64,000 nt of DNA from an uncultured candidate division Zixibacteria bacterium (GTDB lineage Bacteria > Zixibacteria > MSB-5A5 > GN15 > FEB-12): assembly GCA_963806185.1 (NCBI GenBank), contig CAWDXE010000001.1, positions 608,001 through 672,000 on the forward strand. The letters run 5' to 3'. The notes under the pieces were generated by a model that saw only the letters and a list, made by a program, of their open reading frames with translations, searched no databases and was not told the DNA's origin. Position 1 is the first letter of the stretch; each line of letters opens with the position of its first letter. Below, one piece after another: positions 23,774 to 61,507 of the stretch. A program made the position numbers and the translations under genes.

Positions 23774-23847
23774 GGGGTTGTAGTTCAGTTGGTTAGAACG
23801 CATGCCTGTCACGCATGAGGTCGCGAGTTCGAGTCTCGTCAACCCCG
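23774..23847 (+). tRNA. tRNA-Asp(GTC), putative integration target
   Basis: GGGGTTG/CAACCCC acceptor stem, CATGC-CTGTCAC-GCATG anticodon arm, GTTCGAGT T-loop. Confidence 0.95.
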
Positions 23848-23945
23848 CTTATAATTGGTCATAAATTCTTGGTTCGCGTCACCACAATCCTCGATTGATT
23901 TCCGCCTTTCGCAGCAGCGTTTCTGATCGGCTGGCAGCCCTGACA

Positions 23946-23967
23946 TCTTTACGCCTTCTTTACGCCT
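23946..23967 (+). promoter_or_regulatory. Putative KdpE (OmpR-family) binding site
   Basis: Perfect 11-bp tandem repeat TCTTTACGCCT x2 upstream of the porin-kdp operon. Confidence 0.55.
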
Positions 23968-24480
23968 CTCGACGCTTTCTTGAGAATCCTTCAATTCACA
24001 TTTGCACTATATCTACGTGAGTCGCGGCGAAACACGTAGTGAAGTTTCTGCCGCCGACCAGGGAAACGAGGTGTCTATGCGGACTGTCAATTCCGGTGGA
24101 AAGGACATTGTGAAGACGATCGCGCTCATCATTTTGATGACCGCTGTCTTCGTCTTTGCGCTCTATGCGGCCAAGGCCCTTGTCGACGGCTGGCCGCTCA
24201 CTCATTGATCCATGTGTAGGAAATGACACGCCAAATGCGAAATGTACGTTGTCTCATAAGGGCCGGTATGATCGAAGTCGCCAAGTTTCTGGCGCTGTCC
24301 GCGCTGATAGCGACCGGCGTATTCACCGCTATGTTCGTCGCCCAGGCGCTTTCGATTATTCGATTTCAGCAGCAAGCGGTAATCTCGCGATCAATTTCGC
24401 ACAGGCCAGTTCGAGAATTCAGAAAGATATTACCGTTAAATCGAACATTCAGCGCTCTCGAATCAGAAAGTTGGAGAAAG

Positions 24481-25845
24481 ATGAAGTTCAAAGAGCTGTC
24501 CGGAGTCATGCTAAGCATTCTGGTTCTAATCTGCGGTACCGCCCTCGCGGAACAAAAGGGTCAACCTTTCGAAGGAATCGATCAAACCTGGCAAAACGGC
24601 AGCGATCGACGCGATTCGTCCGTATTCAAGGATATGAAGTACTTCACGCCAAGCGTTTTGATCGATCTCAACTACAATTTCTCATTCAGAGATCCAATCG
24701 ACAATACGGCGGTGGGTTCAACAGCGGTGGCTCGTCACAATGAAGTGCAGCTGTCGGCACTGCATTTCGGTGGCGACTTTACGTTTGACAACGCCCGCGG
24801 GCGAATCATGACGCAGTTCGGCACGCGCTCGACCGTTGTTCCCAGAAACGACTTCAGTCCGTATCGCGGTCAATACCAACTGGCTAATGTATACCGCTAT
24901 TTGAGTGAGGCCTACGCCGGCTATCACATTAATAAGGCGTATGGCGTTAACATCGATATGGGCTTGTTTATGTCATACATTGGCCTCAACTCGTTTTACC
25001 AACCCGAAAATTGGGAATACCAGGCCTCCTTCACGTCCGACAATACTCCCTGGTTCTTCAATGGCATTCGAATTCAGATACACCCATCGCGCTTTCTGAA
25101 GATCGAACCCTGGATTATTAATGGTTGGCAAAGTTATGGCAAATTCAATACCATGCCTGGGTTGGGAGCGAACATCACGTGGATGCCGAACAGTAACGTG
25201 AAGCTGTTGACGAACGACTATTTTGGTACCGACGCGGCCGGGATCAAGTCACGCAAGCGTTTCCACTCGGACAATAGTTTTCTGTTGCGGTACCATGAGA
25301 ATCCGCAGAGCAAAGGGATCACACGGGCGGCTTTCTCTTTCACCGGCGACATCGGCTTTGAGAAAGGTGGCGGCGTAAACGGATTCTCTGACGGAGACTC
25401 AACTCAGGGGCCGGCGCAGTACTTTCTAAGTGCCATGTTCTATAATCGCGTGTGGTTCCATCAAAACAGGTTTGCGTGGACAATCGGCGGCGGGGCGATG
25501 ACCAATCCGGGTCGCTACCTCGTGTTGTACCCGACTGGAGAGGCGAGCCCCCTTCCGGATCCGAACGATCCGACAAAGTTCGAGGGCGCCTACCCTTTTT
25601 CGGCAAACCCGGGTGACAAGTTTAGAGCATGGGATATATCGACAAATATTGACTATATGCCCAACCAGAGTGTGACTTTCCGGCTGGAATTGGTGCATCG
25701 CGAAGCCAGTGTCCCGTACTTCGCGGGGCGGGGAGGCGTGACATCGCAAAGCGGTTATTCGACGACAGCGCTGGACCCCAATTGGCGTCCCGATCTGGTG
25801 AAGTCCGAAACCAGAATCATTCTGGCGACGCTCTTTAGACTCTGA
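24481..25845 (+). CDS. Outer-membrane beta-barrel (porin-like) protein heading the kdp operon
   Basis: RBS GGAGA, signal peptide MKFKELSG...ALA, aromatic-rich beta pattern, ends LATLFRL. Confidence 0.75.
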   Translation: MKFKELSGVMLSILVLICGTALAEQKGQPFEGIDQTWQNGSDRRDSSVFKDMKYFTPSVLIDLNYNFSFRDPIDNTAVGSTAVARHNEVQLSALHFGGDFTFDNARGRIMTQFGTRSTVVPRNDFSPYRGQYQLANVYRYLSEAYAGYHINKAYGVNIDMGLFMSYIGLNSFYQPENWEYQASFTSDNTPWFFNGIRIQIHPSRFLKIEPWIINGWQSYGKFNTMPGLGANITWMPNSNVKLLTNDYFGTDAAGIKSRKRFHSDNSFLLRYHENPQSKGITRAAFSFTGDIGFEKGGGVNGFSDGDSTQGPAQYFLSAMFYNRVWFHQNRFAWTIGGGAMTNPGRYLVLYPTGEASPLPDPNDPTKFEGAYPFSANPGDKFRAWDISTNIDYMPNQSVTFRLELVHREASVPYFAGRGGVTSQSGYSTTALDPNWRPDLVKSETRIILATLFRL

Positions 25846-25886
25846 CCGGCAATCGGAAACAACACCTTTCACATGGGAACCACGGT

Positions 25887-25973
25887 ATGGAATTCATAAT
25901 CGGCGGGATAGTAGCGTTGGCGTTGCTCATTTACCTGGTATACGCCCTGTTTCACCCGGAGAAACTGACCTAA
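25887..25973 (+). CDS. kdpF: K+-transporting ATPase subunit F
   Basis: Manual translation MEFIIGGIVALALLIYLVYALFHPEKLT* directly before kdpA. Confidence 0.88.
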   Translation: MEFIIGGIVALALLIYLVYALFHPEKLT

Positions 25974-25982
25974 GAGGAATCG

Positions 25983-27674
25983 ATGAACTCACTTGATTAC
26001 GTGCAAATTGCGCTCTATGTCGGTGCCTTGATCGTGCTGACCCCGCTCCTGGGTGGATTTATGGCGAGAGTGTTGGGCGGCCAACGCCACCTACTCTCTG
26101 CCCCCCTGGGTTGGCTGGAGCGCCTGATATACAGATTGTCTGGCGTTAATCCGGCCGAGGAGACGCACTGGAAAACCTATGCATGGGCGCTGCTCTGGTT
26201 CAATTTCTTCGGTTTTCTGGTCGTGTTCTTGCTGCAGGTGACGCAGCAGTGGCTGCCCCTCAATCCGCAGAATCTGCCGGCCGTGTCGTGGCATTCCGCG
26301 ATTAGTACGGCCGTCAGTTTCATGACGAACACCAACTGGCAGGGGTATGGCGGCGAAAATACGATGAGCTATCTGACACAAATGCTCGGGCTGACGGTTC
26401 AGAACTTTGTGTCGGCGGCCACAGCGATCGGTGTACTGCTGGCGCTTGTTCGCGGGTTCATGCGAAAGTCCAGCAATACCATCGGTAATTTCTGGACAGA
26501 TCTGACGCGGACAACCATCTATATCCTTCTTCCCCTTGCTATCATCTACACGGTTATTCTCGTTGGCCAGGGCGTCGTCCAGACCAACGATAATTATCAG
26601 ACAGTGACTACACTTGAAGGTCAGCAGCAGACGATCGCGGTCGGACCTGCGGCATCGCAGATTGCGATCAAGCAACTTGGTACCAACGGCGGCGGCTTCT
26701 TCAATGCCAATAGTTCTGTACCGTTCGAGAATCCCACCCCGGTGTCGAATTTCTTTGAGATGCTGGCGCTTTTACTAATTCCGGCGTCCTTGGCATATAC
26801 CTACGGCAAACTTATCGGCAATATACGACACGGCTGGCTGATCTTCTCGGTTATGCTCTTGCTGTTCATCGGGGGATTAGCCGCATCGCTGTACAGCGAG
26901 TTCTCTCCCAATGCGGTTACCAACACCTCTGCCAATATGGAAGGCAAGGAAGTGAGGTTCGGGGTAACAAATAGCGTGATCTGGTCGACTGCGACGACCG
27001 ATGCCTCCAACGGGTCGGTCAACGCCATGCATGACAGCCTGACGCCCATCGCAGGCGGAGTGGCTATGTTCAATATGATGCTGGGCGAGATCATCTTCGG
27101 CGGAGTCGGGTGCGGATTGTACGGCATGCTTCTGTTCGTGCTTCTCACCGTGTTTCTTGCCGGTCTGATGGTGGGAAGAACACCGGAATATCTCGGGAAA
27201 AAGATTGAGGCAAGTGATATCAAGTGGGTGATTTTCGCCATTGTGGTGCCGAGTGTCGTGCTATTGATCCAGGCGGGGATCTCCGCCGTGGTCAAGCCTG
27301 GGTTATCGAGTCTCGCCAACGCGGGACCGCATGGCTTGAGTGAGATCCTGTACGCATTCGCCAGCGGCATCGGCAACAATGGCAGTGCCTTTGGTGGGCT
27401 CAGTGCCAATACCGTATACTATAATTTGATGATCGCATTGTCTATGCTGGTCGGGCGTTTTGCGATTCTCTTGCCGGTTCTGGCCGTGTCCGGTCAAATG
27501 GTAACGAAAAATGTCACTCCCGTTTCGGCAGGTACGTTTTCCACCAACAGTGGGGTATTTGTCATCCTTCTCCTTGGCGTCATACTAATTGTTGGCGCGC
27601 TGACCTTCTTCCCCGCGCTCTGCCTGGGACCGATAATCGAGCAATTCCTAATGAACGCAGGACAAACTTTCTGA
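25983..27674 (+). CDS. kdpA: K+-transporting ATPase subunit A
   Basis: [46 protein letters not shown]. Confidence 0.97.
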
Positions 27675-27684
27675 GGCAACGGCA

Positions 27685-29788
27685 ATGGAGACAAAAGTAG
27701 AAGTAACATCGATGAAATCGCTTATATGGCCGGCAGTTGGTGACGCCTTTCGCAAATTGAACCCTCGCGTGCAATGGCGCAATCCGGTGATGTTTGTGAC
27801 CGAGGTAGGCGCGGTTGCGACCACGATTTCGTTTTTCTGGGGCATCGCCCACGGACAATACTCCGGGTTTGACCTGCAGATCAGCCTTTGGCTGTGGTTC
27901 ACCGTGGTATTCGCCAATTTTGCGGAATCGATAGCCGAAGGCAGAGGCAAGGCGCAGGCTGAAAGCCTCAAAAGAGGTCGTTCTCAGGTGATGGCTCGCT
28001 TGATCGGCCGAAACGGAACGGCCAAGGTAGCGCCGGCAGAGACGCTGAATCTTGGCGACCGTGTGATATGCGAGACCGGCGACATAATCCCTGCCGACGG
28101 CGAAGTCGTGGAAGGCATCGCATCAGTCGATGAATCAGCGATCACGGGCGAATCGGCGCCGGTTATCCGTGAGAGCGGCGGCGATCGCAGCGCTGTCACC
28201 GGCGGAACAAAGGTAATCAGCGATCGCATCATCGTTCAGGTGACGGCGCAACCTGGTCACGGTTTCGTCGACCGCATGATCGCCCTCATAGAGGGCGCCA
28301 AGCGCCAGAAGACGCCCAACGAGATCGCCCTGAGTATTGTACTCGCCGGCTTGACAATCGTATTTCTAATCACGGTCGCGACGTTGAAATTCTTCGCCGA
28401 CTACAGCGGGACGGCATCGCACCAGGATCTATCGACGATTGTGACGATTCCAGTACTTGTGGCGCTGCTGGTCTGTCTCATCCCCACCACTATTGGCGGT
28501 CTTCTGAGCGCGATCGGGATTGCCGGCATTGACCGGCTCATTCGTCGAAACGTGATTGCCACAAGCGGCCGGGCGGTCGAGGCGGCCGGCGATATCGACG
28601 TGCTTCTGATGGACAAGACCGGAACCATCACTCTGGGAAACCGAATGGCCACCGAATTTCACCCGGCACCTTTCGTTACCGCGCACCAGCTGGCGGAAAG
28701 CGCACAACTGGCATCGCTTTCCGACGAGACGCCGGAGGGACGATCAATCGTCGTGCTCGCCAAAGAGAAATTCGGGCTAAGCGCACAGACCTTAACCCCG
28801 CACGACGCGCGTTTCGTCCCATTTTCCGCGGCCACACGTATGAGTGGGATCGATATACACGACACTGACAACGGCGAAATGCACATGTGCATTCGCAAAG
28901 GGGCTTTGGACGCAATCCAAGTGCTATCTCGAAAGAGCCGGCAGCACAATGCCGGCAGAAGTCGTCGCAGCGGCTGAGTCAATAGCGCGCTCGGGTGGGA
29001 CTCCGCTCGCGGTAGCAAGCGATTCACAAGTACTCGGTGTCATTCATCTGAAAGATGTCGTCAAGGGCGGCATTCGGGAACGCTTTGCCGAAATGCGGCG
29101 CATGGGTATTCGAACGGTAATGATCACCGGCGACAATCCGCTTACCGCCGCGGCGATCGCCGCCGAGGCCGGTGTCGATGACTTTCTGCCCCAGGCGACG
29201 CCCGAGATGAAACTGCAGCGTATCCGCGACGAACAGAAGGCGGGCCATCTCGTTGCTATGACCGGCGACGGCACCAATGACGCCCCGGCGCTGGCGCAAG
29301 CCGATGTCGGCGTGGCCATGAACACCGGCACACAGGCGGCACGCGAGGCCGGCAACATGGTCGACCTGGACAGCAACCCAACCAAGCTGATCGATGTGGT
29401 CGAGACGGGCAAGCAGATGCTCATGACGCGCGGCGCGCTGACGACATTCAGCATCGCCAATGACGTGGCCAAGTACTTCGCTATTATTCCGGCGATGTTT
29501 GCGTCACTTTACGCAAGCGCCGGATCGCAAGCCGGACCGTTGGCGGCACTTAACGTCATGCGACTGGCGTCTCCGCAGAGCGCAATACTGAGCGCCGTCA
29601 TCTTTAACGCGCTCATTATCATCGCCTTGGTTCCGTTGGCACTGCGCGGCGTGAAGTACCGAGCCGAGGGCGCATCGGCGGTGCTTCGGAGAAACATCTT
29701 TATCTACGGGTTTGGCGGCCTGATTGCACCATTTGTAGGCATTAAACTAATCGATATGCTGGTGACTGCGCTCGGGTTTGCCGGGTAG
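27685..29788 (+). CDS. kdpB: K+-transporting ATPase subunit B, frameshift near 28915
   Basis: [23 protein letters not shown] in the first frame; [27 protein letters not shown] in the second. Confidence 0.95.
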
Positions 29789-29797
29789 GAGACAAAC

Positions 29798-30361
29798 ATG
29801 AAGATCATCTTACAATCGATTCGAATTCTCCTGGTATTTACAGTTCTCACAGGCCTGTTGTACCCTCTGGCCATGACAGGCCTCGCACAGTTGATCATGC
29901 CCGTGAAGGCTAATGGCAGCATGGTCACCCGCAATGGCCAGCTTGTTGGATCAGAGTTGGTCGGTCAGACATTCGCGCTGGACAAGTACTTTTGGCCGCG
30001 ACCGTCAGCCGTAGGATACAATCCAGTGCCTTCCGGGGGAACGAACCTGGGCCCGACCAGTTCGACGCTCAGGGATTCAGTTGCGGCACGAGCGGCGAGG
30101 TTCAGTATGCCGGTTGGTGTTATCCCGCCGGATTTGCTCGAAGCGTCCGGAAGCGGCCTGGATCCACACATCAGCCCGGAAGCTGCACTATTCCAAGCCG
30201 ATAGAGTTGCCGCGGCGCGATCCATCGAAAGAGCGGATATGGACAAGCTGGTATCCCTAATGACTCACCTGACCGAACCGCCGCAATGGGGCATTTTTGG
30301 CCAACCGCGCATAAACGTCCTGCGACTAAATCTGGCGTTGGACTCAGTGTTTAGCAGATAG
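29798..30361 (+). CDS. kdpC: K+-transporting ATPase subunit C
   Basis: YFWPRPSA, SGSGLDPHIS, INVLRLNLALD. Confidence 0.95.
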   Translation: MKIILQSIRILLVFTVLTGLLYPLAMTGLAQLIMPVKANGSMVTRNGQLVGSELVGQTFALDKYFWPRPSAVGYNPVPSGGTNLGPTSSTLRDSVAARAARFSMPVGVIPPDLLEASGSGLDPHISPEAALFQADRVAAARSIERADMDKLVSLMTHLTEPPQWGIFGQPRINVLRLNLALDSVFSR

Positions 30362-30372
30362 TATGTTGCGGT

Positions 30373-33057
30373 ATGCAATCTGACGATCGCCCGGATCCCG
30401 ACCAACTCCTGAGGGCGCTTTCTCGAAACGACACTGAGCGCCCCACTGGAAATCTTCATGTTTTCTTCGGCATGGCCGCCGGCGTTGGAAAAACGTATGC
30501 GATGCTCGAAGCGGCACGAGCCCGCGCAGCTGACGGCACTGACGTGGTGGTTGGCTTGGTGGAGACTCACGGCCGAGCCGAGACCGAACGCCTCCTGCAA
30601 GGGCTGACGGTCATTCCCCGCAGGAAGACTACCTACCGAGATGTCGAACTCGCCGAAATGGACATCGATGCAATACTGGCTCGAAGGCCGCAACTGGCGT
30701 TAGTCGATGAGTTAGCTCACACGAACGTCCCGGGATCGCGCCATCCGAAGCGGTGGCAGGATGTCGTGGAATTGCTCGACGCCGGGATCGACGTGTTCAC
30801 CACCTTGAACGTACAACACGTTGAATCGCGCAAGGATTCCGTGCAAACCATCGCCGGTATTACCATTCGTGAATGCGTTCCCGATCAGCTACTCGAGCGT
30901 GCGGCCCAAATCGAATTGGTCGATATCACACCGGGTGACCTCCTGAAGCGACTAAGAGAAGGCAAAGTCTACCTGGGCGACAAAGCAGATACGGCCGCCG
31001 CCAATTTCTTCAAAGAAGATCGCCTTACGGCGCTACGGGAGTTGTCGCTTCGTTTGACCGCCGAACTGGTCGACAACGCGCTGCATGACATGATGCTCAC
31101 CCAAAGCGGGTCTGCGCGCTGGAAACCCACGGAGCGATTGATGGTCGCGGTGAGTCATAGCCCGTTCTCCGAGGGGCTCATCCGGGCGACCCGGAGAATC
31201 GCCTTCAGTTTGAGCGCGCCGTGGATCGCGGTGAACGTCAACACCGGTGCGATTCTGAGTGATGCAGATCGAGCAACCCTCGCCCGCAATCTTCGGCTGG
31301 TTACTGAGTTGGGTGGCGAACTGGTGTCGACGAGCGATTCTGATATTTCATTAGCGCTTCGACGTGTTGCCGATCAGCGACGCGTCACGCAGCTCGTCAT
31401 AGGTCGCCCTACTTGGCGCTGGCGCGACCTCCTCTCAGGCGGAAGCATTCTCGATCGCCTGGCCCGCCAAGAAGCGCCCTACGATATCTTAGTCCTCCAG
31501 CCAAACAGTCAGGAGATAACACCCGGTCAGACCCGTTCCAATCCACCAGTGAAGTCGTTTCGCCCCGGTCCCTACTATATCGCCGTGGGGACGGTCATAG
31601 CGGTGGCGCTCATTAACGGTCTGCTCTTCGGCGTTATCGGGTATAAGGCCGTCGGGTTTGTCTTTCTCCTGTCGGTGCTCTTGCTGAGTTTGGTTGTACC
31701 CGTCGGAGCTGTCACCACAGGCGCCCTGCTGAGCGCGCTCATCTGGGACTACTTCTTCATTCCGCCGCGCGGGACGATGCATATCTCGTCACCGGAAGAT
31801 GTCATGATGGTAGTATCGTACATCGTCGCGGCGCTTGTACCGGGAAGCCTAACATACCGTTTGCGCACTCGCGAGCGGCTTATTCGAGAGCGCGAAGCGC
31901 GCACCGGTCTGCTTTATGATCTGGCCAAGAATCTTGTCGCCCAACCGAACATGGCCTCCGCACTCGAAAGTCTCTCCCAACGTTTGGGTACCCTTCTACA
32001 GGGTGAGATAGACCTGCTCGTTGTAGATCAGTCAGGCAGGTTGAAATCATCGTCCGTGTTGGGAAACGACTGGCTGGCGACCGAAAAAGAACGTGCGGTG
32101 GCAGTTTGGGCTTTCGAACACGGTCGCGCCGCCGGCTGGGCAACCGATACGCTGCCCATGGCAGCTGCAATGTACCTGCCGCTACGGGGCACGAGCGGAC
32201 CGAGCATGGGAGTCATGGCCTTTCGACCGAAGACAGACCGCCGACTGACCCAGGACGAAGAGAACCTTTTGTCCGCCATTGCTCATCAACTTGTGCTGTC
32301 GGTCGAACGCGATCGTCTGCAGGAGGCGGCACAGCAGGCCGAGCGGCTCAGGGATTCAGAACGGCTGCTGCAGGCAGTAATTGATTCGATTTCCCACGAG
32401 TTGCGGACTCCCCTGACGGCAATCGCAGGCAATGTGTCGGCACTGGCTTCAATGGATGTCACGGCGGACCCTAAAGGGCGTGAGGCAATTGTTAGCGACC
32501 TCCTTAGCATCGTTGACAGACTTAATCGGGTGGTTGGCAACTTACTGGATATGTCGCGCTTTTCCGCAAGCGCGGTAGCATTGCAGGCCGATTGGCACGA
32601 TATAGGCGATCTTATTGTCTCTTCCGTACGGGCGACGGAGCGGCAAACGTCGCACCATACGATACAAATGCGCATTGCAGAAAATCTCCCGCTCGCCTGG
32701 GTCGACTATCGCCTCGTCCAACAAGCCATAGAGAACCTCATCGCAAACGCAGCAAATTACTCTCCGGCGGATAGCTTGGTCGAAATCAGTTGTGAGGCGT
32801 TTGAAAACAGGTTTCTGATATCGGTCTGCGATCGCGGCCCTGGAATTCCGGAAGCTGCGTTACCCCATCTCTTCGAAAAATTCTACCGAGTTCCCGGAAC
32901 ACCTTCAGGCGGAGTTGGGCTCGGTCTGGCGATCGCCAAAGCCATAGTCGAGGTACATGGCGGTTCGATCGGTGCCAGAAATCGACCGAATGGCGGTGCA
33001 GTGTTTTCCATCTCTCTGCCGGTGCGGACTCAGCCGGATATTCCGGGAGAAGCTTGA
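30373..33057 (+). CDS. kdpD: Sensor histidine kinase KdpD
   Basis: GMAAGVGKTYAML, LVDELAHTN, USP domain, TM block, SHELRTPL, GLGLAI. Confidence 0.97.
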   Translation: MQSDDRPDPDQLLRALSRNDTERPTGNLHVFFGMAAGVGKTYAMLEAARARAADGTDVVVGLVETHGRAETERLLQGLTVIPRRKTTYRDVELAEMDIDAILARRPQLALVDELAHTNVPGSRHPKRWQDVVELLDAGIDVFTTLNVQHVESRKDSVQTIAGITIRECVPDQLLERAAQIELVDITPGDLLKRLREGKVYLGDKADTAAANFFKEDRLTALRELSLRLTAELVDNALHDMMLTQSGSARWKPTERLMVAVSHSPFSEGLIRATRRIAFSLSAPWIAVNVNTGAILSDADRATLARNLRLVTELGGELVSTSDSDISLALRRVADQRRVTQLVIGRPTWRWRDLLSGGSILDRLARQEAPYDILVLQPNSQEITPGQTRSNPPVKSFRPGPYYIAVGTVIAVALINGLLFGVIGYKAVGFVFLLSVLLLSLVVPVGAVTTGALLSALIWDYFFIPPRGTMHISSPEDVMMVVSYIVAALVPGSLTYRLRTRERLIREREARTGLLYDLAKNLVAQPNMASALESLSQRLGTLLQGEIDLLVVDQSGRLKSSSVLGNDWLATEKERAVAVWAFEHGRAAGWATDTLPMAAAMYLPLRGTSGPSMGVMAFRPKTDRRLTQDEENLLSAIAHQLVLSVERDRLQEAAQQAERLRDSERLLQAVIDSISHELRTPLTAIAGNVSALASMDVTADPKGREAIVSDLLSIVDRLNRVVGNLLDMSRFSASAVALQADWHDIGDLIVSSVRATERQTSHHTIQMRIAENLPLAWVDYRLVQQAIENLIANAANYSPADSLVEISCEAFENRFLISVCDRGPGIPEAALPHLFEKFYRVPGTPSGGVGLGLAIAKAIVEVHGGSIGARNRPNGGAVFSISLPVRTQPDIPGEA

Positions 33058-33061
33058 TCAC

Positions 33062-33784: not shown

Positions 33785-33786
33785 GC

Positions 33787-49548: not shown

Positions 49549-49576
49549 TTGACAACCGGAGCTTTTTTACCATATT
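49549..49576 (+). promoter_or_regulatory. Putative sigma70 promoter
   Basis: TTGACA-N16-CATATT upstream of the gene at 49818. Confidence 0.45.
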
Positions 49577-51797: not shown

Positions 51798-51809
51798 AAT
51801 CTATCGAAC

Positions 51810-51843
51810 GGAGGGCTGGCTTCGTTGGTGAAGCCAGTTCTCC
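51810..51843. terminator. Hairpin between convergent genes
   Basis: GGAGGGCTGGCTTC-gttggt-GAAGCCAGTTCTCC. Confidence 0.55.
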
Positions 51844-51934
51844 ACGGTTCAGTCTCACAGCACCCAACAGTTGCTACGCGGCGTTTCTCAACCCGCCCGC
51901 GCCCCTCAAGCAGACCGGCGCAATCGGTCTTGGT

Positions 51935-52348
51935 TCAGTTGGCCTTCTGAACTCTGAAATTTACGGTACCTGTTACGCGGGTGAACCGCACCCTAAGTGT
52001 CCAGGGACCGGGTTCCGCGATTCCTCTCTGAGTTGTGCCAAAAGTTCCATTGGCGGTCAGGTCATGGCTATAGACCTGAGTGCCGAGAGAATCCAGTATT
52101 TCCAACGTCATCGTGCCGGAGGCGCCCGCGCTGGTAGACTGATTGACGGTAGCCGTATCGCCGGTGTTTCGCCAAGTGTAGTCCTTGGAGAAAGTGACGT
52201 TCTTCATGGCGGTCGCCTGGAACTGGAAGTTGTCTACCACATTTGTGATCTCCGGCTGATAGGGGGCTAATGGACTTGTCGACTTATCACTGCATCCTGC
52301 AGCAGCGACAACCAAGAGCAGCAGGCATGAGAAGATTGTGACTCTCAT
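51935..52348 (-). CDS. Lipoprotein
   Basis: Lipobox AAG-C after a hydrophobic stretch; RBS AGGAG. Confidence 0.75.
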   Translation of the reverse strand: MRVTIFSCLLLLVVAAAGCSDKSTSPLAPYQPEITNVVDNFQFQATAMKNVTFSKDYTWRNTGDTATVNQSTSAGASGTMTLEILDSLGTQVYSHDLTANGTFGTTQRGIAEPGPWTLRVRFTRVTGTVNFRVQKAN

Positions 52349-52530
52349 GATGATTTCTCCTTTCTTAAATACGAATCTGCGGTCTCATTAGATTACATGA
52401 CCAACCCACAGCCCGCCCATACGTCGAACCTCAGAATTCCGAATCCGTCGCGTCACTGCCAATTGCATTGCTCGAACTCCGAAATAAGACAGCCAGGAAA
52501 TCTGCCGGCCACTTCCCACATCTACCCGCC

Positions 52531-53631: not shown

Positions 53632-53650
53632 AGGTGTATGTTCCTGTGTG

Positions 53651-55372
53651 TTATTGGCCCATCAGAGCCTGGTACTCGCGATTGAACTTTTCCGATTCCG
53701 GCTTGGCTTCAGCCGCCTTGGCATACGCCTCTCGGGCTTTGTCTTTCAGATCCAGCTTCAGATATATCTGCCCGAGTTTCCAGTATGATTTCCAGTTGTC
53801 TGAATCGTTCTCTATTGCCTTCTGAAGTAGCTGCACCGCTTCAGTCAGGCTACCGCTCTTTTCTTCCAGAATCGCCAGATTGTGATACGCTTTAGCGTAA
53901 GTCGGGTCGCGCTTGATTGCCTCGCGCAAGTCAGCCCGGGCGTCATCGATTCGGTTGAGTTCACTGAAAGCTTTAGCGCGGTTGAAGTAGGATTCCGGTG
54001 AATGAGTTAACCCTATTAATCGGGTCAAATAGACCGCCGCAGAGTCATACTCTTCAAGTTTCAGGTAGGTGGTGCCGAGATTGTTAAGCCCTTTTGTATT
54101 CACCGGATCCTGATCGAGCAAGGTGTGATAGGCCGCGGCCGCATCCTCCGACTTGTCCTGCTTACTGGAACACAGCGCCAGATTGAAGAGGGCCTTCAGG
54201 TTTTCCGGATCGAGTTCCACCACATTGCGGTAGGCGATTTCGGCTGAATCGAACCGCTGACGATCATAATAGAGCTGCGCCAGACTGAAATATGCCTTTG
54301 AATAGTTCGGCTTGAGCGCTACCGCCGCCCGGTAATGTCTCAAGGCACTATCGGGCTGATTCGCCTTTTCAAACAGCAGCGCCAGGTTATAGTGCGCTTC
54401 ATGATAACTGCTGTCATACTTGATTGCCGCGCGGTACGCCTCGGCGGCTTTATCGAATCGTTCCAGATGGTTGTTGGCGATGGCCAGGTTGAAATAGGTT
54501 GCGGCGTCAGTTGGCTCGATCACAATCGCCTTCTCATACGCGCCGACAGCCTTGTCATACTGCTCCACCTTGCTGTAACAGACGCCGAGATTCTTGAACA
54601 CGCGCGACTTCTTCATCCCCAGCGATGCCACCTTCTCAAAATCGCTCGCGGCTTCGGCGTACTTGCCGTCGTTCATGCGAATGAGGGCCAGGTTGTAGCG
54701 CGCTTCCGTGTATCCAGGCCGCAAGCGCAAGGCGTCGAGATAGCTCTTCTCGGCCTGCTTGTCGTTCTTCAGTCGATGATAAACCAGCGCCAAATTGTAG
54801 TGTGCCGGTGCCGACTCGGCCGACTTGCGAATCTCCGTCGCCTTCTTAAACCAGGTGATCGCGTCATCGTTTGATCCGATGGACATGTACAGCGTGGCCA
54901 GGTTGTAGTTCGGCTTATAGTAGAATGGCCGGAGCGCGATGGCTTGTTTATACGATCTTATGGCATCGCCCATCTTTTCGGTGCGATGATATACGATCCC
55001 CAAGTTGTACCACGCACGCGCGTACCCGGTATCGATTTCAAGCGCCTTCTTCAGGTACGGAATAGCGTCGCTGTACGCCTTCTTGGTGATGAGCACTGAG
55101 GCCGAGTCGTTGTAGGCAACCGCCTGCGGATTGCGACTATTGGTCATCTCATCGTCAGCGTCTGTCGACGAAGAATCGGCTGTAGAATCGACCACCGGCT
55201 GCGATTCAATCTCCGATGCGGTCGACCCCTGCGTGATCGGAGCAGCCGCTTGAGCGGTGACGTGAATGACTTCGCGCCGCTTGTCGTCAATCGAGCCGCT
55301 CTTTTCCACGGCGAAAACGACAACCGCCGCGGCGCAGATCCAGGCAATGATATTAATGATATAGTACTTCAT
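53651..55372 (-). CDS. Membrane-anchored multi-TPR protein
   Basis: N-terminal TM followed by more than 12 TPRs (AxYNLA/G). Confidence 0.9.
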   Translation of the reverse strand: MKYYIINIIAWICAAAVVVFAVEKSGSIDDKRREVIHVTAQAAAPITQGSTASEIESQPVVDSTADSSSTDADDEMTNSRNPQAVAYNDSASVLITKKAYSDAIPYLKKALEIDTGYARAWYNLGIVYHRTEKMGDAIRSYKQAIALRPFYYKPNYNLATLYMSIGSNDDAITWFKKATEIRKSAESAPAHYNLALVYHRLKNDKQAEKSYLDALRLRPGYTEARYNLALIRMNDGKYAEAASDFEKVASLGMKKSRVFKNLGVCYSKVEQYDKAVGAYEKAIVIEPTDAATYFNLAIANNHLERFDKAAEAYRAAIKYDSSYHEAHYNLALLFEKANQPDSALRHYRAAVALKPNYSKAYFSLAQLYYDRQRFDSAEIAYRNVVELDPENLKALFNLALCSSKQDKSEDAAAAYHTLLDQDPVNTKGLNNLGTTYLKLEEYDSAAVYLTRLIGLTHSPESYFNRAKAFSELNRIDDARADLREAIKRDPTYAKAYHNLAILEEKSGSLTEAVQLLQKAIENDSDNWKSYWKLGQIYLKLDLKDKAREAYAKAAEAKPESEKFNREYQALMGQ

Positions 55373-56244
55373 AGTCTCTTCCGTAAACCGGCCTGATTGG
55401 CCAGTTGAATATTCAGTCCCGGGCGGGCGTTTACTTCCAGAATCAATGGCCCCTGAACAGCATCGCAGACGAAATCCACGCCGATATACCCCAGTCCGAC
55501 AATTTCGCTTACGCGCGACCCTATCTCGAGCATTTCCATGAAATAGGGAATCGGCTGACCCGCCAGCGGCGCGCTCGACTCCGGATGATGCCTGATGATA
55601 TCGTTGTGGTGTACGCCATCAAGCGACAGCCCGGTGGCGATGTCGATCCCTACCCCGATACCTCCTTGGTGAAGATTCGCCTTGCCATCCGACTCCTTGG
55701 TCGGCAGGCGGCACATTGCCATAATGCACCGATCCAACTTGTATATCAGGCGGATATCACCAACTCCTTCGATCCCCTCCGGGATGAATGGCCGCAACTC
55801 GGGGTGATTGACTACGGTCTCTTCGAAATAGCACGTGTCAGCCACATTATCCAGGGAGAACGCACCGTTCAGTATCTGTAAGACATGGAAAGATACATCC
55901 TCAGCTGTCCACTCTTCCCCGGACGATTGATAACCACTCTCCGTGCGCTTGACGAGCTTGATCCCGTTACCGCCGTAACCGGTATTCGGCTTGATGACAA
56001 AGTTCGGAAATTCGCGCACGACTACTTCCCAACGCGCCAGTGACCTGGGATCGATAACCTCGTGATACGTTCGTGGAGTCGGAATGCCCGCCTTGGACAA
56101 CAACTCCTTACAACGCAACTTGTCGTCGACATTCGGAAAGAATCGACGTTCGTTGTGGGTGTAGATCAAGTCAAGATTGCGGGCGTTGATCCCCAGAACT
56201 CCTTTGCGCGAGGGTAGCCAATTGGTCAGTCTATCTTTCAGCAT
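55369..56244 (-). CDS. Alpha-L-glutamate ligase-like ATP-grasp protein
   Basis: VLGINARN, VDDKL, FVIKP..GYGGNGI, ANLHQGG, LEVNARPGLNIQLAN. Start trimmed to MLKD. Confidence 0.88.
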   Translation of the reverse strand: MLKDRLTNWLPSRKGVLGINARNLDLIYTHNERRFFPNVDDKLRCKELLSKAGIPTPRTYHEVIDPRSLARWEVVVREFPNFVIKPNTGYGGNGIKLVKRTESGYQSSGEEWTAEDVSFHVLQILNGAFSLDNVADTCYFEETVVNHPELRPFIPEGIEGVGDIRLIYKLDRCIMAMCRLPTKESDGKANLHQGGIGVGIDIATGLSLDGVHHNDIIRHHPESSAPLAGQPIPYFMEMLEIGSRVSEIVGLGYIGVDFVCDAVQGPLILEVNARPGLNIQLANQAGLRKRL

Positions 56245-56246
56245 GC

Positions 56247-57848
56247 TCAAGCCCGTATCAACAGATGTTTGAATCGAACATATTCCATGAGGCGAAATCC
56301 GGAATACCTCCCGATGTAGATGTAGAGCGCTATGACAACGAGTATCAGCTCCGGAAAGCTTATCACTAATGACTGGAGGAAGCGCCACGACATGAGGCCG
56401 TAGGCCACCGCCGCGACCGCGAGCGTCAGGGCGGCAGTCCGTGCGGCATGCTTTACGCCGAATTCTTCCGTTACCAACGAGAATCGTTCGACCGTCAGCG
56501 TCAGTATCACCATGGGAAACAGCGCAACTCTGGCAACGTCGAGCCAGCCCAGGCGAACGCCCAGAATGGTGATGCCGAGTATGAACAGCACCAACGAGGA
56601 GAGGATGATGGCCAGCCGTGGGGTATGGAGCAACTGCAGTCGGGATAGGACTAATCGCACCAACGCGCCAAAAGCAATGATGGTCGCAAACAGCGCAACG
56701 CCGATAGTCAGGCCGGTATCTCGAAAACCGATCGCCAACAGGGCAGGCATGAACGTGCCAAAGGTTTCGATGCCGATAAGGTTGCGAAAGAGTACCACTG
56801 CCAGAATACCGATCGGCAACATGATGATAATGCGTAGTAGTTCGAGCGAGATAGCGACTCGCTTGAAGGTCGCCCATATATTGAGAATATCGAGCGGGCT
56901 TTCGCCGGCCGTGGTTATCCCGGCACTGTTCTGAACCAGTCGCTTTTTCAGATTGAAGAAGTACTTGAAATTGATGTCTTTCGTGTGCGTGATCGCCGGT
57001 TTCTCGCCGTAATACAATATGAGATAATCGGACGGGATTTCCGCAAAGTACTTGTTGGTCGGGCAGAAGGGCACCCAGTAACCGGCTATATACGCTTCCA
57101 CCCAGATGTGTGTTGCCCGTGACTGCCCCTGGCTCAGTATCTTTCCTCCTACCAGACGCGTCGGCAATCCAATATGACGGGCCAGGGCAGCAAATAGCCG
57201 CGCTTTACCGCCGCATGACGCTTCTCCCAGATGGTACGCGGTCAGCGCATCCGTAGTCCCCGAGTACTGCACATACTTCAACCCGAAGGTGGTGAAGTTG
57301 TAGATAGCGCGTGTATTTGCAAGCACCGTACTATCGGGCGAAAGGGCCAACGAATCGGCCAACCTTGCCATCTCAGGGCTGTCGGATTGAATGGCGGTGT
57401 CGGTCAATAGATACCTGGCAACCGAGTCGGGAACGGATTCACTTGATATCAGAGTGGAATCGATGACGAATTTCTGGTTCTTCGTTATCACCGTCGCCGT
57501 GTAGGTAAGCCGCCGCCGCCCGTCCACGCCGTCAGAACGCCAGACCCCGAGCCGATCTCCATCGATCGTCTCCACTTCGAATTTCAGATCGCCTGAATTG
57601 AACGCCTCGTCCGAGACGGACTGGTTGGTTAGATTCTGCGGGAGAGCCATCGCAATGTCTACCGCTGAGCCGTGACCGTCAAACTCCATCACCGTCTCCA
57701 GGTAGTAGCTCTCGGTCTGGACGATGGCATCAAGCGTATACCCAAGATAGGCGATCTTGAAAAACGCCATGGCGGAGGCCGCCGTCACCAGCAATGCCGG
57801 CAGTACACCGACCAGCCATCGCGAATTGTGGCGAATTCTCACGGACAT
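56247..57848 (-). CDS. Transglutaminase-like domain fused to 7TM domain
   Basis: SCGGKARLF, HIWVE, WVPFCPT; C-terminal RNLIGIETFGTFMPAL, LFPMVIL...ERF, GRYSGFRLMEY.RF. Confidence 0.85.
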   Translation of the reverse strand: MSVRIRHNSRWLVGVLPALLVTAASAMAFFKIAYLGYTLDAIVQTESYYLETVMEFDGHGSAVDIAMALPQNLTNQSVSDEAFNSGDLKFEVETIDGDRLGVWRSDGVDGRRRLTYTATVITKNQKFVIDSTLISSESVPDSVARYLLTDTAIQSDSPEMARLADSLALSPDSTVLANTRAIYNFTTFGLKYVQYSGTTDALTAYHLGEASCGGKARLFAALARHIGLPTRLVGGKILSQGQSRATHIWVEAYIAGYWVPFCPTNKYFAEIPSDYLILYYGEKPAITHTKDINFKYFFNLKKRLVQNSAGITTAGESPLDILNIWATFKRVAISLELLRIIIMLPIGILAVVLFRNLIGIETFGTFMPALLAIGFRDTGLTIGVALFATIIAFGALVRLVLSRLQLLHTPRLAIILSSLVLFILGITILGVRLGWLDVARVALFPMVILTLTVERFSLVTEEFGVKHAARTAALTLAVAAVAYGLMSWRFLQSLVISFPELILVVIALYIYIGRYSGFRLMEYVRFKHLLIRA

Positions 57849-59371
57849 GACGCGGCCCCTACGATATCACGACGAGTCACGGCCGATCCCGCCTTGGAGC
57901 AGTTCGGATATTGCGTAATCACCGTGCAGTATTCGGAATGGGCAGGGGCATTGTTGGATGATCCATTGAGCTGCTCGTAACAACGGCCCGCCCAGTAGTG
58001 AGCGTCGCCTGCATCCTTTGCGGTAGGATAGCCGTTGTAGTAAGCCTGATAAGCGGTCAGTGCGTTCGTGTAGTCCGCATCATTATAGTAGGCGGTGGCA
58101 ATTCTGTATTTGGCGTCGGAGACAAAGTCGTTGGTCGGATACGTAGCGATAAACGACTGGTAGAGCGTAACGGCGGTCGGGAAGTTACCCAGATTGTATT
58201 CACAGTTGGCCTTGTAATAGGCCGCGTGTGGGGCGTAGGACGAGGTCGGAAATTTCACCCGCACCGAATCGAAGTCATCGCGGGCCTGAATAAACGTGTT
58301 GGTCTCCATCTTGTATTTGCATTGCGCCCGGTAGTACCAGCACTCGGCAATCTTATCTCCCGTTGGATAGGCACTGATGGCCGTATTGAATTGCGTCAGG
58401 GCCTGCGAATAATTGTCCTGATTGTAATATGACATCCCCTTGTAATAACTGGCCCGCTCGGCGTTCAGTGTGTTGGGATACTGCGTGATAACCTTGGTAA
58501 ACTGCGTGATCGCCGAGGTCCACTGGTCGGTGCTGTAATAGAGATACGCTGAACCGTAAATCGCATCAGGCGCATTCAGTGAGCTCGGGTAGGTGGTTTC
58601 CACCGCCAGGTAGGCCGCGATGGCTGACGAATAACTGGCAAGGGCTTCGTATTCGCGTCCAACTCGATACTGAGCCTGCGGGGCGATGAATCGGGTGGCG
58701 TAATTGGTCACGACGAACTGAAAATCCGCCAGCGCACTGTTAAAATTCCGCTTGGCGTCCTTGTAGGCTCCGCGCCAATAGTAGGCATCCGGAACCAGGC
58801 TGTCGGCAGGAAACGTACTTATCAGGACGGAAAAATTATTGATCGCTGAATCGTACATATTCTGCTGACCAAATGCCAGGCCGATACGATAGCGACTCAC
58901 CGCCGCATATGGTCCGGTCGGATTACCGGAAATCAGGTTGCGAAGACGCGCTATGGCACTGTCGGTATGATCGTACGTATACATCCGCATCGCCTCGCCG
59001 AACAGTTGCGCCACCGTGTTGTTGCTTGCCGCCAGTGTCACTGTCGGATTGGATACGGTTTGCCCGGCTGTCGTCACGGCGACACCGGCCAGATTCTGAT
59101 CCGCGTATCCGGCTTTCGAGAATGTCAGCGTGTAGGTACCATATGGCACGCCGACAATCGTATAGCTGCCGGCGCTATTCGTGGCACCGATAATGCCGGT
59201 ATTCCCGACATACACGAATATCCCCGCATGGTTGCCTGTACCTGATAACGTCGCCGTTCCAGTCACGGTACCGGACGGAATGAGGTCAACATTCACAAAT
59301 GTCGTGTCTGCCTGGGCCAGGGTTGTGCAAAGACTGATGGCCGTCAAAGTAAGAAACAGGACTCGCTTCAT
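57839..59371 (-). CDS. Secreted protein with carboxypeptidase-regulatory-like domain and BamD/YbgF-type TPRs
   Basis: Signal peptide; GTYTLTFSKAGY; repeated YP.S..APDA.Y motifs. Confidence 0.8.
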   Translation of the reverse strand: MKRVLFLTLTAISLCTTLAQADTTFVNVDLIPSGTVTGTATLSGTGNHAGIFVYVGNTGIIGATNSAGSYTIVGVPYGTYTLTFSKAGYADQNLAGVAVTTAGQTVSNPTVTLAASNNTVAQLFGEAMRMYTYDHTDSAIARLRNLISGNPTGPYAAVSRYRIGLAFGQQNMYDSAINNFSVLISTFPADSLVPDAYYWRGAYKDAKRNFNSALADFQFVVTNYATRFIAPQAQYRVGREYEALASYSSAIAAYLAVETTYPSSLNAPDAIYGSAYLYYSTDQWTSAITQFTKVITQYPNTLNAERASYYKGMSYYNQDNYSQALTQFNTAISAYPTGDKIAECWYYRAQCKYKMETNTFIQARDDFDSVRVKFPTSSYAPHAAYYKANCEYNLGNFPTAVTLYQSFIATYPTNDFVSDAKYRIATAYYNDADYTNALTAYQAYYNGYPTAKDAGDAHYWAGRCYEQLNGSSNNAPAHSEYCTVITQYPNCSKAGSAVTRRDIVGAASCP

Positions 59372-59418
59372 GGTTTGCTCCCTATATTCTCAGTCGTCAT
59401 TTTCCGGTTGATAACCGC

Positions 59419-59922
59419 TCACTGGCACGCCGGCAGCGGAGTGAAATTGATGAAAAGATTGTCGATAAGTGCGGTCAGATCGCCGATATCGACATTGCCG
59501 GTTGGATCGCCATCGCAGTTGGCCTCCTTCACACAACACAGCGGCGTGAAGGTGATAAACAAATTGTCTATCAAGCCGGTCAAATCGCCGATGTCGACAC
59601 CGTCGCCCGGCGAGCAGTCAACATTGCCGACTGTCGCCACACAACAGGTGCCAACGGCAACATTCGTGCGGATGAGTGGTTGGTAGTTGGAGCGCCCAAC
59701 CAGAAAGGTATACGCCCCGTCAGGCACGTTCGGGAATAAGTACTTTCCGGTTACGTCCGTCTGGGTGCTGTCTCCTGTCTGCAGTATCTTGACCACCACG
59801 TTTGGAACCGGCTGGGCCGTCACGGAGTTCTTTACAACTCCGCTGACCGTCCGAGCGGCTACGTGTGTCCCGACTATGCTGACAAAGACAAGGATGAGAA
59901 TCAGTTGGAAGAACTTTGACAT
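59419..59922 (-). CDS. Small secreted protein: carboxypeptidase-regulatory-like domain plus dockerin-like tail
   Basis: VSGVVKNSVTAQPV..TDVTGKY; CCVATVGNVDC..VDIGDLT twice. Confidence 0.8.
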   Translation of the reverse strand: MSKFFQLILILVFVSIVGTHVAARTVSGVVKNSVTAQPVPNVVVKILQTGDSTQTDVTGKYLFPNVPDGAYTFLVGRSNYQPLIRTNVAVGTCCVATVGNVDCSPGDGVDIGDLTGLIDNLFITFTPLCCVKEANCDGDPTGNVDIGDLTALIDNLFINFTPLPACQ

Positions 59923-60193
59923 GCTTAGGCCCGTAGCTAAGGGTTCAAAGAATCGATGATTGGCTGTCTTTCAATCAAGAACAGCACGGGTCCAATTTGG
60001 TGCATTTTCAAGCGAAGATTTCTGAAAAAACTTCGCTGGCGACTTACTTTAGTGCGAGACCGGGCGATGGAGATATTCCCCGAACCCGAGCGCCAAATGC
60101 CTATCACGCGTCTATCTAACCAAGATATCAATTATCGGCATTTCGTCAAGAAGGCAATAGTCCCATGCTGCCGAAGCAGTAATATGGATTATG

Positions 60194-61300
60194 TTACTCT
60201 GTGATACGATCTTTATGGCCTTCAAAGAGAGATTGATAAGCGGCATATCGTGGTAGATTCGGCCCCGCGTACAGTCGTTTCGGCCAGGCGAGCAACATCA
60301 CGGCCAGCACGTTTCGATGCTCCCCCTGAGCCAGATCGGTGTTGCCGAGTACGGACGGAATCATACGGTTCTTTGCATCGTACGCTTTGACAATCGCCTT
60401 GCGGCAGGCGTCGACCAGCGGGTTCTGTTCCTGCCGGGTGAGGCAAAAGCATAGACCTACCTCGGCGATAATATCCGGCGTGGCTTCTTGCAGGATTCGC
60501 CGACTCCTCGCGGCGAAGTAAGAAGTGATTCCGCCATATGCAGAAGAGTCAACCCATTCCTGATAGTAGCAGCTTGCAGCGAGAACGATGTGAGTTAAGG
60601 CATATAGCTTGTCGCCAAACTCGTCGGCATCAAGATTGCGATCGAGCGAGTCCGGGAAAACGCTTTCTACCACGGCCCGGTACGAATCTCGAAAATCAGC
60701 TGCACCCAGCGCCTGGAGGTAATAGACGTAGTTTACCGCCTGCGGAGCGAAGACACGAACGACGGCTGTGTCGAGGAGAAACGGGGCAAAATTGTGTGCC
60801 GCTACCACCTGCTTGGCGCGTTCGAAGAGTCCGGAGAACCGCGAAGAATCGAGCCCGTACTCAAAGAGCTTGTTAGTCTGTGTCAGAACGTTGAGATAGA
60901 TCAGCTCCCCTTCCCATTTCTTGAGCACCTCACCCCGCATTTGTGCCTTTCGGGTATTGCGGGAGAACGGCTGGAACAGACCGGCCGTCCGTTGCTCGCA
61001 GTAGTCCGGATCCCCGAGCGAATCCAAGTCGCGCTCGAGTTGATCGATGGTCAGGCTGACATCAAAGAGGATCGGATAGATGAGCGAGGTATCACCGGTG
61101 GTACGGTAGATTCGCACGGCATAGTGGCGTTGGATATCGGGATCCAACGTGTGCAGGGAGGACTCGAATCCGGTCCTGATCTCTCCCGCAATCCGTGCAT
61201 ATATGTCTTTCGCATTTATGGTCGGGCAGTATCCCACACACATTGCAACCAGAAGCAGGGATGCAACGGGACTGAGCCAGCGAATGAAGGATGACTTCAT
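60194..61300 (-). CDS. Exported protein, DUF3541-like
   Basis: HYAVRIYR, LYALTHIVLA, DIIAEVG, GEHRNVLA; family assignment from memory. Confidence 0.6.
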   Translation of the reverse strand: MKSSFIRWLSPVASLLLVAMCVGYCPTINAKDIYARIAGEIRTGFESSLHTLDPDIQRHYAVRIYRTTGDTSLIYPILFDVSLTIDQLERDLDSLGDPDYCEQRTAGLFQPFSRNTRKAQMRGEVLKKWEGELIYLNVLTQTNKLFEYGLDSSRFSGLFERAKQVVAAHNFAPFLLDTAVVRVFAPQAVNYVYYLQALGAADFRDSYRAVVESVFPDSLDRNLDADEFGDKLYALTHIVLAASCYYQEWVDSSAYGGITSYFAARSRRILQEATPDIIAEVGLCFCLTRQEQNPLVDACRKAIVKAYDAKNRMIPSVLGNTDLAQGEHRNVLAVMLLAWPKRLYAGPNLPRYAAYQSLFEGHKDRITE

Positions 61301-61456
61301 TAATAGAAGATCAGGCAAACTCGCCAATTGTCAAGTTAAGAAACCACCGTAACGTTATCCCCTTTAAGCAATTGGCCACGACCTCTTCCTCCGATTGAGC
61401 AGCTGTCATAACATTATAATGAGGAGGGAGCTTATCACTTTGTCGGCCTGATGGTC

Positions 61457-61507
61457 TCAGGCAGTCCCTATCACCCGGTTGCGGAACGCGTCTCGTAGAC
61501 TCCGCCA
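61457..61507 (+). repeat. att-like repeat copy 6
   Basis: TCAGGC...CCCGGTTGCGGAACGCGTCTCGTAGACTCCGCCA. Confidence 0.88.

Follow-up and report, generated by a model that had tools for sequence, protein, structure and literature searches.

Cassettes arrayed behind a Zixibacteria tRNA-Asp gene are probably bounded by severed 3' ends of large serine recombinase genes

How does a row of gene modules, each closed off by the same short repeat, come to stand behind a single tRNA gene with no integrase beside it? The question is raised by 64,000 nucleotides of DNA (hereafter the window; positions 608,001 to 672,000 of contig CAWDXE010000001.1, assembly GCA_963806185.1) from an uncultured bacterium of the candidate division Zixibacteria, in which a tRNA-Asp gene is followed by six such repeats. 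An initial annotation took them for attachment-site (att)-like scars of one recombinase family and proposed an integron-like gene-capture platform served by a recombinase in trans, with decayed tandem islands as the alternative. We consider a different answer likely: a large serine recombinase (LSR), with a gene that spans its own attachment site, has left the repeats behind as junctions, and the modules are likely cassettes deposited serially at the tRNA-Asp by passing elements. In what follows, G labels denote genomes of relatives (G000 being the source genome, 3.65 Mb in 8 contigs, 82% complete), L labels loci or arrays and P labels LSR homologues; window numbering is continued past 64000 for junctions and remnants further along the source contig.

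The repeats are not a product of chance. The 28-nt core of the initial annotation has four window matches at ≤1 mismatch and none in 100 shuffles, and a repeat finder recovers a single family of six in-register copies at 33786, 35347, 39455, 42027, 48009 and 61453, all on the plus strand, so that the six same-orientation repeats originally described are real. A profile built from 70 scars of relatives, leaving out the source genome, hits seven places in the 3.65-Mb genome at E <= 8.4e-7, the next candidate having an E of 0.67; they are the six window copies and one located 1.3 kb behind tRNA-Asn, so that a repeat scattered genome-wide is ruled out. The motif, which we call type 1, is present in 16 of 60 relatives and, in a collection of species genomes, in 48 stretches (21 titled Zixiibacteriota, Zixibacteria or GN15, 17 Ignavibacteriales or Ignavibacteriaceae and 10 other), with no match to the repeat pattern in viral contigs. 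None of 38 contigs or stitched arrays mixes junction orientations; the Val-Asp tRNA pair is kept in the arrays of all eight relatives compared; and module orders differ among relatives with breakpoints at the repeats, as expected of the att junctions that the initial annotation had proposed.

The half of the repeat distal to the tRNA core, correctly described before as non-tRNA and common to all copies, can now be given an identity, that of a severed LSR 3' end. On the opposite strand, each type-1 copy reads (W/K/M)-RGLRD(A/D/E)FRNW(V/I)xxx(S)AA-stop, typically RGLRDxFRNWVIENAA-stop. Among 82 distinct pattern hits, about three of them degenerate and many retrieved by a pattern that fixes the proximal half, the stop falls 6-8 codons after FRN in 74, and the tail ends in AA in 53 and in VA in 8. 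For the 75 usable hits, entropy at positions outside the search pattern is 1.36-1.94 bits at third codon positions versus 0.31-1.18 at first and second, and pN/pS is 0.50 in frame versus 1.14 and 1.13 in the remaining two same-strand frames; the codon-type entropy and the in-frame pN/pS thus indicate that the left-half DNA was protein-coding. A second tail family (type 2), RPQYHSPQTF...GxRWKxI-stop, behaves alike (pN/pS 0.63 in frame versus 1.17 and 0.89, on the 25 of 38 tails that are ungapped). Each type-1 left half encodes, on the opposite strand, the last 15-17 residues of an LSR, and the type-1 tails are conserved as peptides across the order.

The enzyme itself is found in relatives. PF07508 is present in 80 of 151 genomes of the order, and in nine relatives picked by LSR match (G020, G028, G074, G037, G110, G040, G112, G070 and G116) an antisense LSR open reading frame (ORF) ends inside the 3' end of the tRNA-Asp at the Val-Asp pair. 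Such an integrated LSR finishes, for example, as ...KPFDILAEGASFKSKRG-RRDSNSRPPA, i.e. with a tRNA-coded tail, and its RG lies in the same frame as the RG of the scars. Joined forms also occur: at L059, an LSR end and a type-1 tail run on in one frame (...KPFDILAEGANLESMRG-LRDAFCNWVRENAA; 26/32 identical to LSR P0008). Most of the 120 homologues listed end in tRNA-antisense text or stop at RG, and seven of those listed have non-tRNA tails related to those of the scars: P0011, P0022, P0031, P0068 and P0077, plus P0002 and P0004 with a full-length type-2 tail. An LSR that reads into the tRNA, a tail at the far junction and the joined forms together place attP within the last codons of the LSR gene. 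Accordingly, attL holds the body of the gene and attR its native tail, and the repeats are attR/attI junctions; the recombination chemistry we infer from the serine-integrase family. The earlier claim that one recombinase family is tied to this tRNA-Asp and that its att junctions bound transferable modules was right. The integrated form has 15-33 C-terminal residues fewer yet keeps all three Pfam domains (PF00239, PF07508 and PF13408). Representative LSRs are mutually 25-49% identical, and the enzyme is met with in at least five sequence groups. With scores of 51-79 bits, the CcrA/B/C models stay far below their cut-offs. The predicted structure of the tailed LSR P0022, whose tail is not of type 1, renders the tail as one helix at 479-504 in which confidence drops from 75 to 44, with few tailed alignment rows, and is uninformative on function. 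At L124, L128 and L134, the LSR codons KPF...(K/E)G directly after the tRNA-Asp make up an inverted repeat, with a run of T on the strand of the tRNA, and the integrase gene may supply the terminator of the tRNA-Asp.

The tRNA-proximal half of the repeat had been read as a copy of the T-arm and acceptor end of tRNA-Asp. That reading stands for copy 5, which matches the final 16 nt of the gene in 16/16 positions; in the other copies only the last CCGC appears to be tRNA-derived, and in most of them a T-arm look-alike, GTCTCGT, lies on the element side. To the left of the last CCCGC, the 79 scars compared depart from the tRNA sequence: 72 have A and 22 have G at positions occupied by C in the tRNA, and on the tRNA-restoring side such substitutions would disrupt the acceptor stem. 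Type-2 tails share only CCGC with the tRNA. The diagnostic bases and the type-2 tails together would place the crossover within CCGC and make GTCTCGT element DNA.

What a complete element looks like can be gathered from G020, G028 and G074, where 22-33 kb separate the tRNA from the first scar. All three start with the LSR, a tyrosine recombinase (~367 aa), a small ORF and a QatC-like gene, after which the cargo varies (restriction-modification, metal-resistance and surface genes); a Pfam scan of the three found no conjugation or relaxase gene. The tyrosine recombinase, with the small, DNA-binding-like ORF, lies directly upstream of the LSR and before the QatC-like gene (L128:7870-8973, L134:7643-8746, L124:14533-15642). 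Such elements are rarely caught in place. Thirty tRNA-Asp ends sampled in the family without regard to LSR yielded two intact LSRs, one cut by a contig end and one 22-codon remnant; the other 26, the source genome among them, have no LSR match (five with <320 bases downstream). There is likewise no LSR match in G053 (12 junctions) or G002 (8 junctions in 11 kb), while G047, G056 and G060 have one. LSRs are thus transient at tRNA-Asp.

The source genome preserves remnants. As the initial annotation had noted, no module of the window encodes a recombinase (Pfam, 41 ORFs), and no resolvase or recombinase domain passes in the 82% of the genome recovered, its only tyrosine recombinases being XerC and XerD. 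Directly right of scar 5, 20 bases match the P' arm of the G074 LSR at 18/20 (next best 13/20 among 82 flanks), and a weak HMM match there scores 5.5 bits, the highest score among 1720 shuffles being 3.4. A second LSR 3' remnant, of 51 codons with two stops, lies at 68203-68355 (G000:C1:676203-676355; E 2e-10). The latter remnant carries a short type-2-like tail and is followed by a nitrous-oxide reductase (nos) cluster; the nos cluster is scar-bounded and inverted in G020, L071 and L079.

The modules between the junctions behave, in part, as units. The median length of the 79 modules left once duplicates are removed is 2525 bp, with 34 under 2 kb. Nine junction pairs lie just 50-61 bp apart, each holding one whole tail only, and no spacing among 91 is under 50 bp. 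Eight module pairs are shared between genomes, and four of these match at an end by alignment: module 2 of the window and a cassette of G053, from another family, are 80% identical over 1425 nt, with both alignments starting 23 bp from the core; a module shared by G002 and G053 starts at +1 in both; one shared by G011 and G026 (7951/7890 bp, 68% nucleotide identity) matches at both ends; and one shared by G053 and L058 (85%) has its right end at 0/0. Besides these, the cupin gene of module 6a has 83-84% nucleotide identity to genes in the scar arrays L058 and L087. Dense arrays (L037, on G002:C75, with 8 junctions in 11 kb, and L048, with 6 in 12 kb) consist mostly of single-gene cassettes with mostly type-2 tails. 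At L067:7624-7967, a distance of 343 bp separates a scar from a tRNA-Asp-like 3' end, the 5' part of which is altered; a short nuclease-like reading lies in the interval.

The sequences directly attest the identity of the tail, the LSR-tRNA overlap, the joined forms, the order-wide same-strand arrays, the remnants and the rarity of a resident LSR; the steps that would connect them are as follows. An element would insert at an LSR-free tRNA end by crossover in CCGC, pushing older modules outward, and its recombinase part or backbone would later be lost by excision or deletion, so that cargo and tail remain. Less firmly, a visiting element could excise from attL to a more distant scar and take the next cassette or cassettes along; the tail of the cassette would complete the LSR in the circle, a new host would be reached, and a later excision at a nearer scar would leave the cassettes there. 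Such cis-mobilisation would account for the clean left ends, the in-frame tails, the fixed cassette ends and the 50-bp minimum, and the integrase-less cassettes with matching ends in distant genomes point to it. Several modules of the source genome may be stuck, their own tails decaying. A bolder version, which we hold only tentatively and think doubtful as a whole, makes the array a library: each of its cassettes would bring along the final piece of the integrase, and only those with intact tails would travel. In it, the AA-ending tail, possibly a ClpXP tag, would switch the stability or direction of the integrase between circle and chromosome. We take the AA end of the type-1 tails to resemble such a tag; the tmRNA tag of the host ends in AA, and type-2 tails have no AA end.

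A number of observations weigh against serial deposition by passing LSR elements. Excision, circles and empty sites are so far predictions. The antisense mirror frame of the type-1 tail, which shares third positions, also has a low pN/pS (0.47), so the choice of frame rests on the position of the stop and on continuity with the LSR; and the 82-hit set has the degenerate and pattern-fixed members mentioned above. At the first diagnostic position, seven of the 79 scars, copy 5 included, have the base of the tRNA; in some junctions the exchange therefore took place further to the left, and the crossover was not always clean. Just four of the eight shared-module pairs match at an end, and kdp (G056), SBBP, ATP-grasp and nos clusters are inverted relative to the scars in other genomes, from which it follows that much cargo was captured more than once. 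With the genome 82% complete, a recombinase may be unassembled. The seven type-1 tails of the source genome are degraded (pN 0.20, pS 0.26), the cores of scars 3 and 4 are degenerate, and in-frame stops occur in scar 5, where the tRNA identity of the proximal 16 nt explains the stop, and in the type-2 scar. This state of the source genome fits dead remnants made in place, i.e. tandem islands, each deprived of its recombinase by ordinary deletion and immobile from then on. That alternative, which we regard as unlikely, also gains from the differing lengths of the LSR remnants, the lack of a recombinase in G000, G053 and G002 and the occurrence of the same cargo in either orientation, and shared cassette ends could reflect transfer of a parent element before decay. 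It sits poorly with right flanks almost devoid of LSR sequence (one strong and one weak match of 86 to the arm of one clade) beside tails that stay readable, with cassettes only 68-80% identical that keep the same ends across genera or families, and with the lower bound on junction spacing. The decayed tandem islands that the initial annotation had kept as its alternative are the closer of its two proposals, provided one adds that certain cassettes seem to have remained mobile as units. Quite unlikely, though compatible with deposition by passing elements, is a programmed drop-off in which the element sheds its own backbone and thereby generates cassettes directly, either via the upstream tyrosine recombinase or via LSR action at an internal attB-like site. 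The constant gene order at the start of the three intact elements, the clean right flanks and the nine empty doublets are what it would produce. It would not lead one to expect the lack of any conserved motif right of the core beyond ~9 AT-rich bases, the variable doublet spacing or the G040 element, which by ORF lengths only has no ORF of ~367-aa size behind the LSR. A Xer/dif (pdif-like) reading, in which the right flanks resemble a XerD arm only in AT-richness, was dropped once the coding tail and the LSRs had been found.

Integrons are defined by IntI, attI and attC. In an integron-like platform, a resident recombinase encoded elsewhere would capture circular single cassettes at the tRNA in trans; this we judge very improbable, even with many single-gene, tightly trimmed modules, dense LSR-free arrays (G053, G002) and a metagenome-assembled genome just 82% complete to recommend it. 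The best TIGR02249 scores in the source genome, 155 and 106 bits against a cut-off of 265, belong to XerD and XerC, so no IntI is found there. Twelve folds, of six scars on both strands, have z-scores of -1.70 to +0.76 and give no attC-type hairpin; and the genes of single-gene modules show no common orientation (21 plus, 13 minus). Moreover, the LSR, where present, sits at the junction on an element with variable cargo and belongs to one of several divergent groups. The arrays do share with integrons small recombinase-free cassettes, empty ones included, and differ from them in the missing IntI and attC hairpin, the absence of orientation bias, the serine chemistry and a recombinase that is mobile and not resident. 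The platform acting in trans is disfavoured, and the enzyme in question is most plausibly the LSR that travels on elements at this tRNA.

The features of the window are collected in Table 1. The module contents agree with those first proposed, whereas the inventory of six junctions had missed the type-2 junction at 48783-48888, the tRNA-Asn-type junction at about 39433-39450 and the continuation beyond the window end, where junctions follow at 64941 and ~68230.

Table 1. Features of the tRNA-Asp array, in window numbering; modules assigned by Pfam where a family is named
Feature	Position	Strand	Content or evidence
tRNA-Val(TAC)	23615..23688	+	ARAGORN; conserved neighbour upstream of the target
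tRNA-Asp(GTC)	23774..23848	+	ARAGORN; target site (attB/attL); shared core CCGC at 23845-23848
Module 1	23849..33786	+	porin (BBP2), kdpA, kdpB, kdpC, kdpD, kdpE (Pfam)
Scar 1	33787..33838	-	type-1 LSR tail RGLRDAFCNWMEGNVA-stop plus core
Module 2	33839..35347	+	single-gene methyltransferase cassette, ORF 34104-35117 (Pfam)
Scar 2	35348..35399	-	type-1 tail RGLRDAFRNWVIEYPA-stop
Module 3	35400..39432	-	Rieske, cytochrome b, multihaem cytochrome c (Pfam)
tRNA-Asn-type junction	39433..39450	+	core GGGGGAGC; antisense KLPRAD...; tail extends leftwards
Scar 3	39456..39507	-	type-1 tail, degenerate core
Module 4	39508..42024	-	S74-domain fibre-like protein, 39620-41410 (Pfam)
Scar 4	42025..42079	-	type-1 tail, degenerate core
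Module 5	42080..48009	-	outer-membrane beta-barrel and two SBBP-repeat proteins (Pfam)
Scar 5	48010..48061	-	type-1 tail; proximal 16 nt = tRNA sequence
Decayed LSR gene 3' end (P' arm)	48062..48117	-	directly right of scar 5
Module 6a	48196..48543	-	cupin gene cassette (Pfam)
Type-2 LSR-tail scar	48783..48888	-	RAQPHSVQTF..., internal stop; 46.9 bits, E 4.9e-12
Module 6b	48889..61456		FG-GAP surface protein, TPR proteins, ATP-grasp, 7TM-transglutaminase, DUF3541 (Pfam)
Scar 6	61457..61505	-	type-1 tail RSLRDAFRNRVIGTA-stop
Module 7	61506..64941, past window end	+	arsR, 198-aa ORF, DsbD/ArsG-like, hgcA (from 63325), hgcB; closed by type-2 scar

The stop of kdpE lies 3 bp from the stop of the scar 1 tail; kdpE adjoins a scar in L087 too, and in G056 the kdp operon sits between two scars in inverted orientation. 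kdpB (27685-29788) is frameshifted near 28.9 kb in the assembly, in which alaS and other core genes are also split, so assembly errors are possible. The tRNA-Asn-type junction is 5 bp from the stop of scar 3. In the tRNA-Asn island of the source genome (L002; G000:C1:491200-492809), ~165 bp of post-tRNA sequence recur without a change behind an Asn-type junction; the tail of this junction has WSAA-stop as its end and abuts an Asp-type scar, and two small ORFs lie between. Besides its type-2 junctions at 48783-48888 and 64836-64941, the source genome has a type-2 scar at G000:C1:972553-972661, ~2 kb behind the tmRNA gene and away from tRNA-Asp, and G028 has a type-1 scar 13 kb from tRNA-Met; junctions therefore also travel inside other islands. 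Further islands, with 3'-end repeats of tRNA-Leu, tRNA-Ser and tmRNA type, lie at G000:C7:4568-37435, 79329-95717 and 121911-160306, in a genome without island integrase. A promoter and terminator scan of 33700-49500 stayed at chance level.

The cargo of module 7 deserves separate mention. The arsR-ORF-dsbD/arsG-hgcA-hgcB block (61506-64941, of which G000:C1:672001-672941 is the part beyond the window) lies between a type-1 and a type-2 scar, and its HgcA scores 445 bits against the NCBIfam cut-off of 275. A second hgcAB copy in the same genome (G000:C7:93909-95356, 68% identical DNA) forms the distal end of a block of arsenic genes that follows tRNA-Ser(CGA). hgcA occurs in 30 of 160 genomes of the order, and scars were found near none of 29 other hgcA loci within 1.5 kb, nor in 12 wider stretches (up to ~8 kb a side; two on short contigs), so that hgcAB as a generally scar-bounded cassette is rejected. 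According to a 2020 survey, hgcA has neither a known insertion sequence nor a transposase in its vicinity and does not occur on viral contigs (PMC7438021). Scar-bounded hgcAB is thus known from the source genome only, a single case to be treated as a lead, albeit one that bears on how mercury methylation spreads; were the cassette library real, it would be the first named vehicle for these genes.

More generally, a striking repeat array finds its explanation in a known type of mechanism, and the two tail profiles offer a cheap marker for cassette boundaries in a little-studied lineage. The natural sets of LSR, attB and attP for the tRNA-Asp end could serve as integration tools, and a cassette library, if it exists, would give a whole bacterial order a means of integron-like gene traffic that relies on a serine recombinase. 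Our literature search, with most subscription papers outside its reach, returned no paper on this tRNA-Asp system, and the word 'tRNA' is absent from the main text of an LSR survey (PMC10083194).

The comparisons that follow refer to the accessible portion of each cited report. Prochlorococcus tycheposons (bioRxiv 2020.12.28.424599) are likewise transient cargo elements at tRNA ends; newcomers displace their predecessors into islands, and incomplete att sites stay behind. Of 937 tycheposons, however, 910 rely on tyrosine integrases and repeats copied from the tRNA, and many carry replication genes. An attP inside a gene is shared with the immunity switch of mycobacteriophage BPs (PMC3694055), in which a C-terminal degradation tag is lost upon integration. 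In BPs it is the repressor gene that is split, and its tag is proven, whereas here the split gene is that of the integrase and the AA end only hints at a tag. Archaeal SSV-type 'suicidal' integrases (PMC7253208) have attP inside the integrase gene itself, integration splitting it into int(N) and int(C) and tandem junctions rebuilding hybrid genes. Those are tyrosine enzymes split into two inactive pseudogenes, in contrast to a serine enzyme that loses only its C-terminal tail and retains its three domains. With cis-mobilisable elements (CIMEs) and site-specific accretion (PMC5704250), the arrays have in common that elements integrate, that integration genes disappear while the att sites persist, that the target is used anew and, on the reading proposed here, that composites would be transferred. 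Their modules, too, lack integration or transfer genes and have att junctions at both ends, the cores of scars 3 and 4 being degenerate. They differ in that the three intact elements have no conjugation or relaxase gene and in that an att arm doubles as integrase coding sequence. The nearest parallel is provided by the Dehalococcoides ssrA islands (McMurdie et al. 2011, PMC3146451), which stand in tandem behind one structural-RNA gene and have a serine recombinase, DsiB (~540 aa), on the reverse strand with its 3' end always overlapping attL. There the DsiB stop is supplied by the upstream island or the target, and 15 islands without an integration module were proposed to be cis-mobilisable (PMC3146451). 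Both systems have an integrase overlapping attL (here in relatives, with only remnants in the source genome), tandem islands and some islands without an integration module. Unlike them, the present arrays target tRNA-Asp with a 4-bp core, CCGC, and not ssrA with a 20-bp direct repeat; their backbone comprises the LSR, tyrosine recombinase, small ORF, QatC-like and restriction-modification genes in place of a six-gene module (with DsiA, RecF-like, ParB and Mom); integrase-less cassettes dominate; and the tails are conserved as peptides, whereas DsiB is described as divergent at the overlap (PMC3146451). The 2011 work on DsiB did not settle if acquiring a tail in the circular form has an effect, and this question becomes testable here. 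As far as these reports go, the tRNA-Asp arrays work like the Dehalococcoides ssrA islands and, differing in target and backbone, are not a member of that group.

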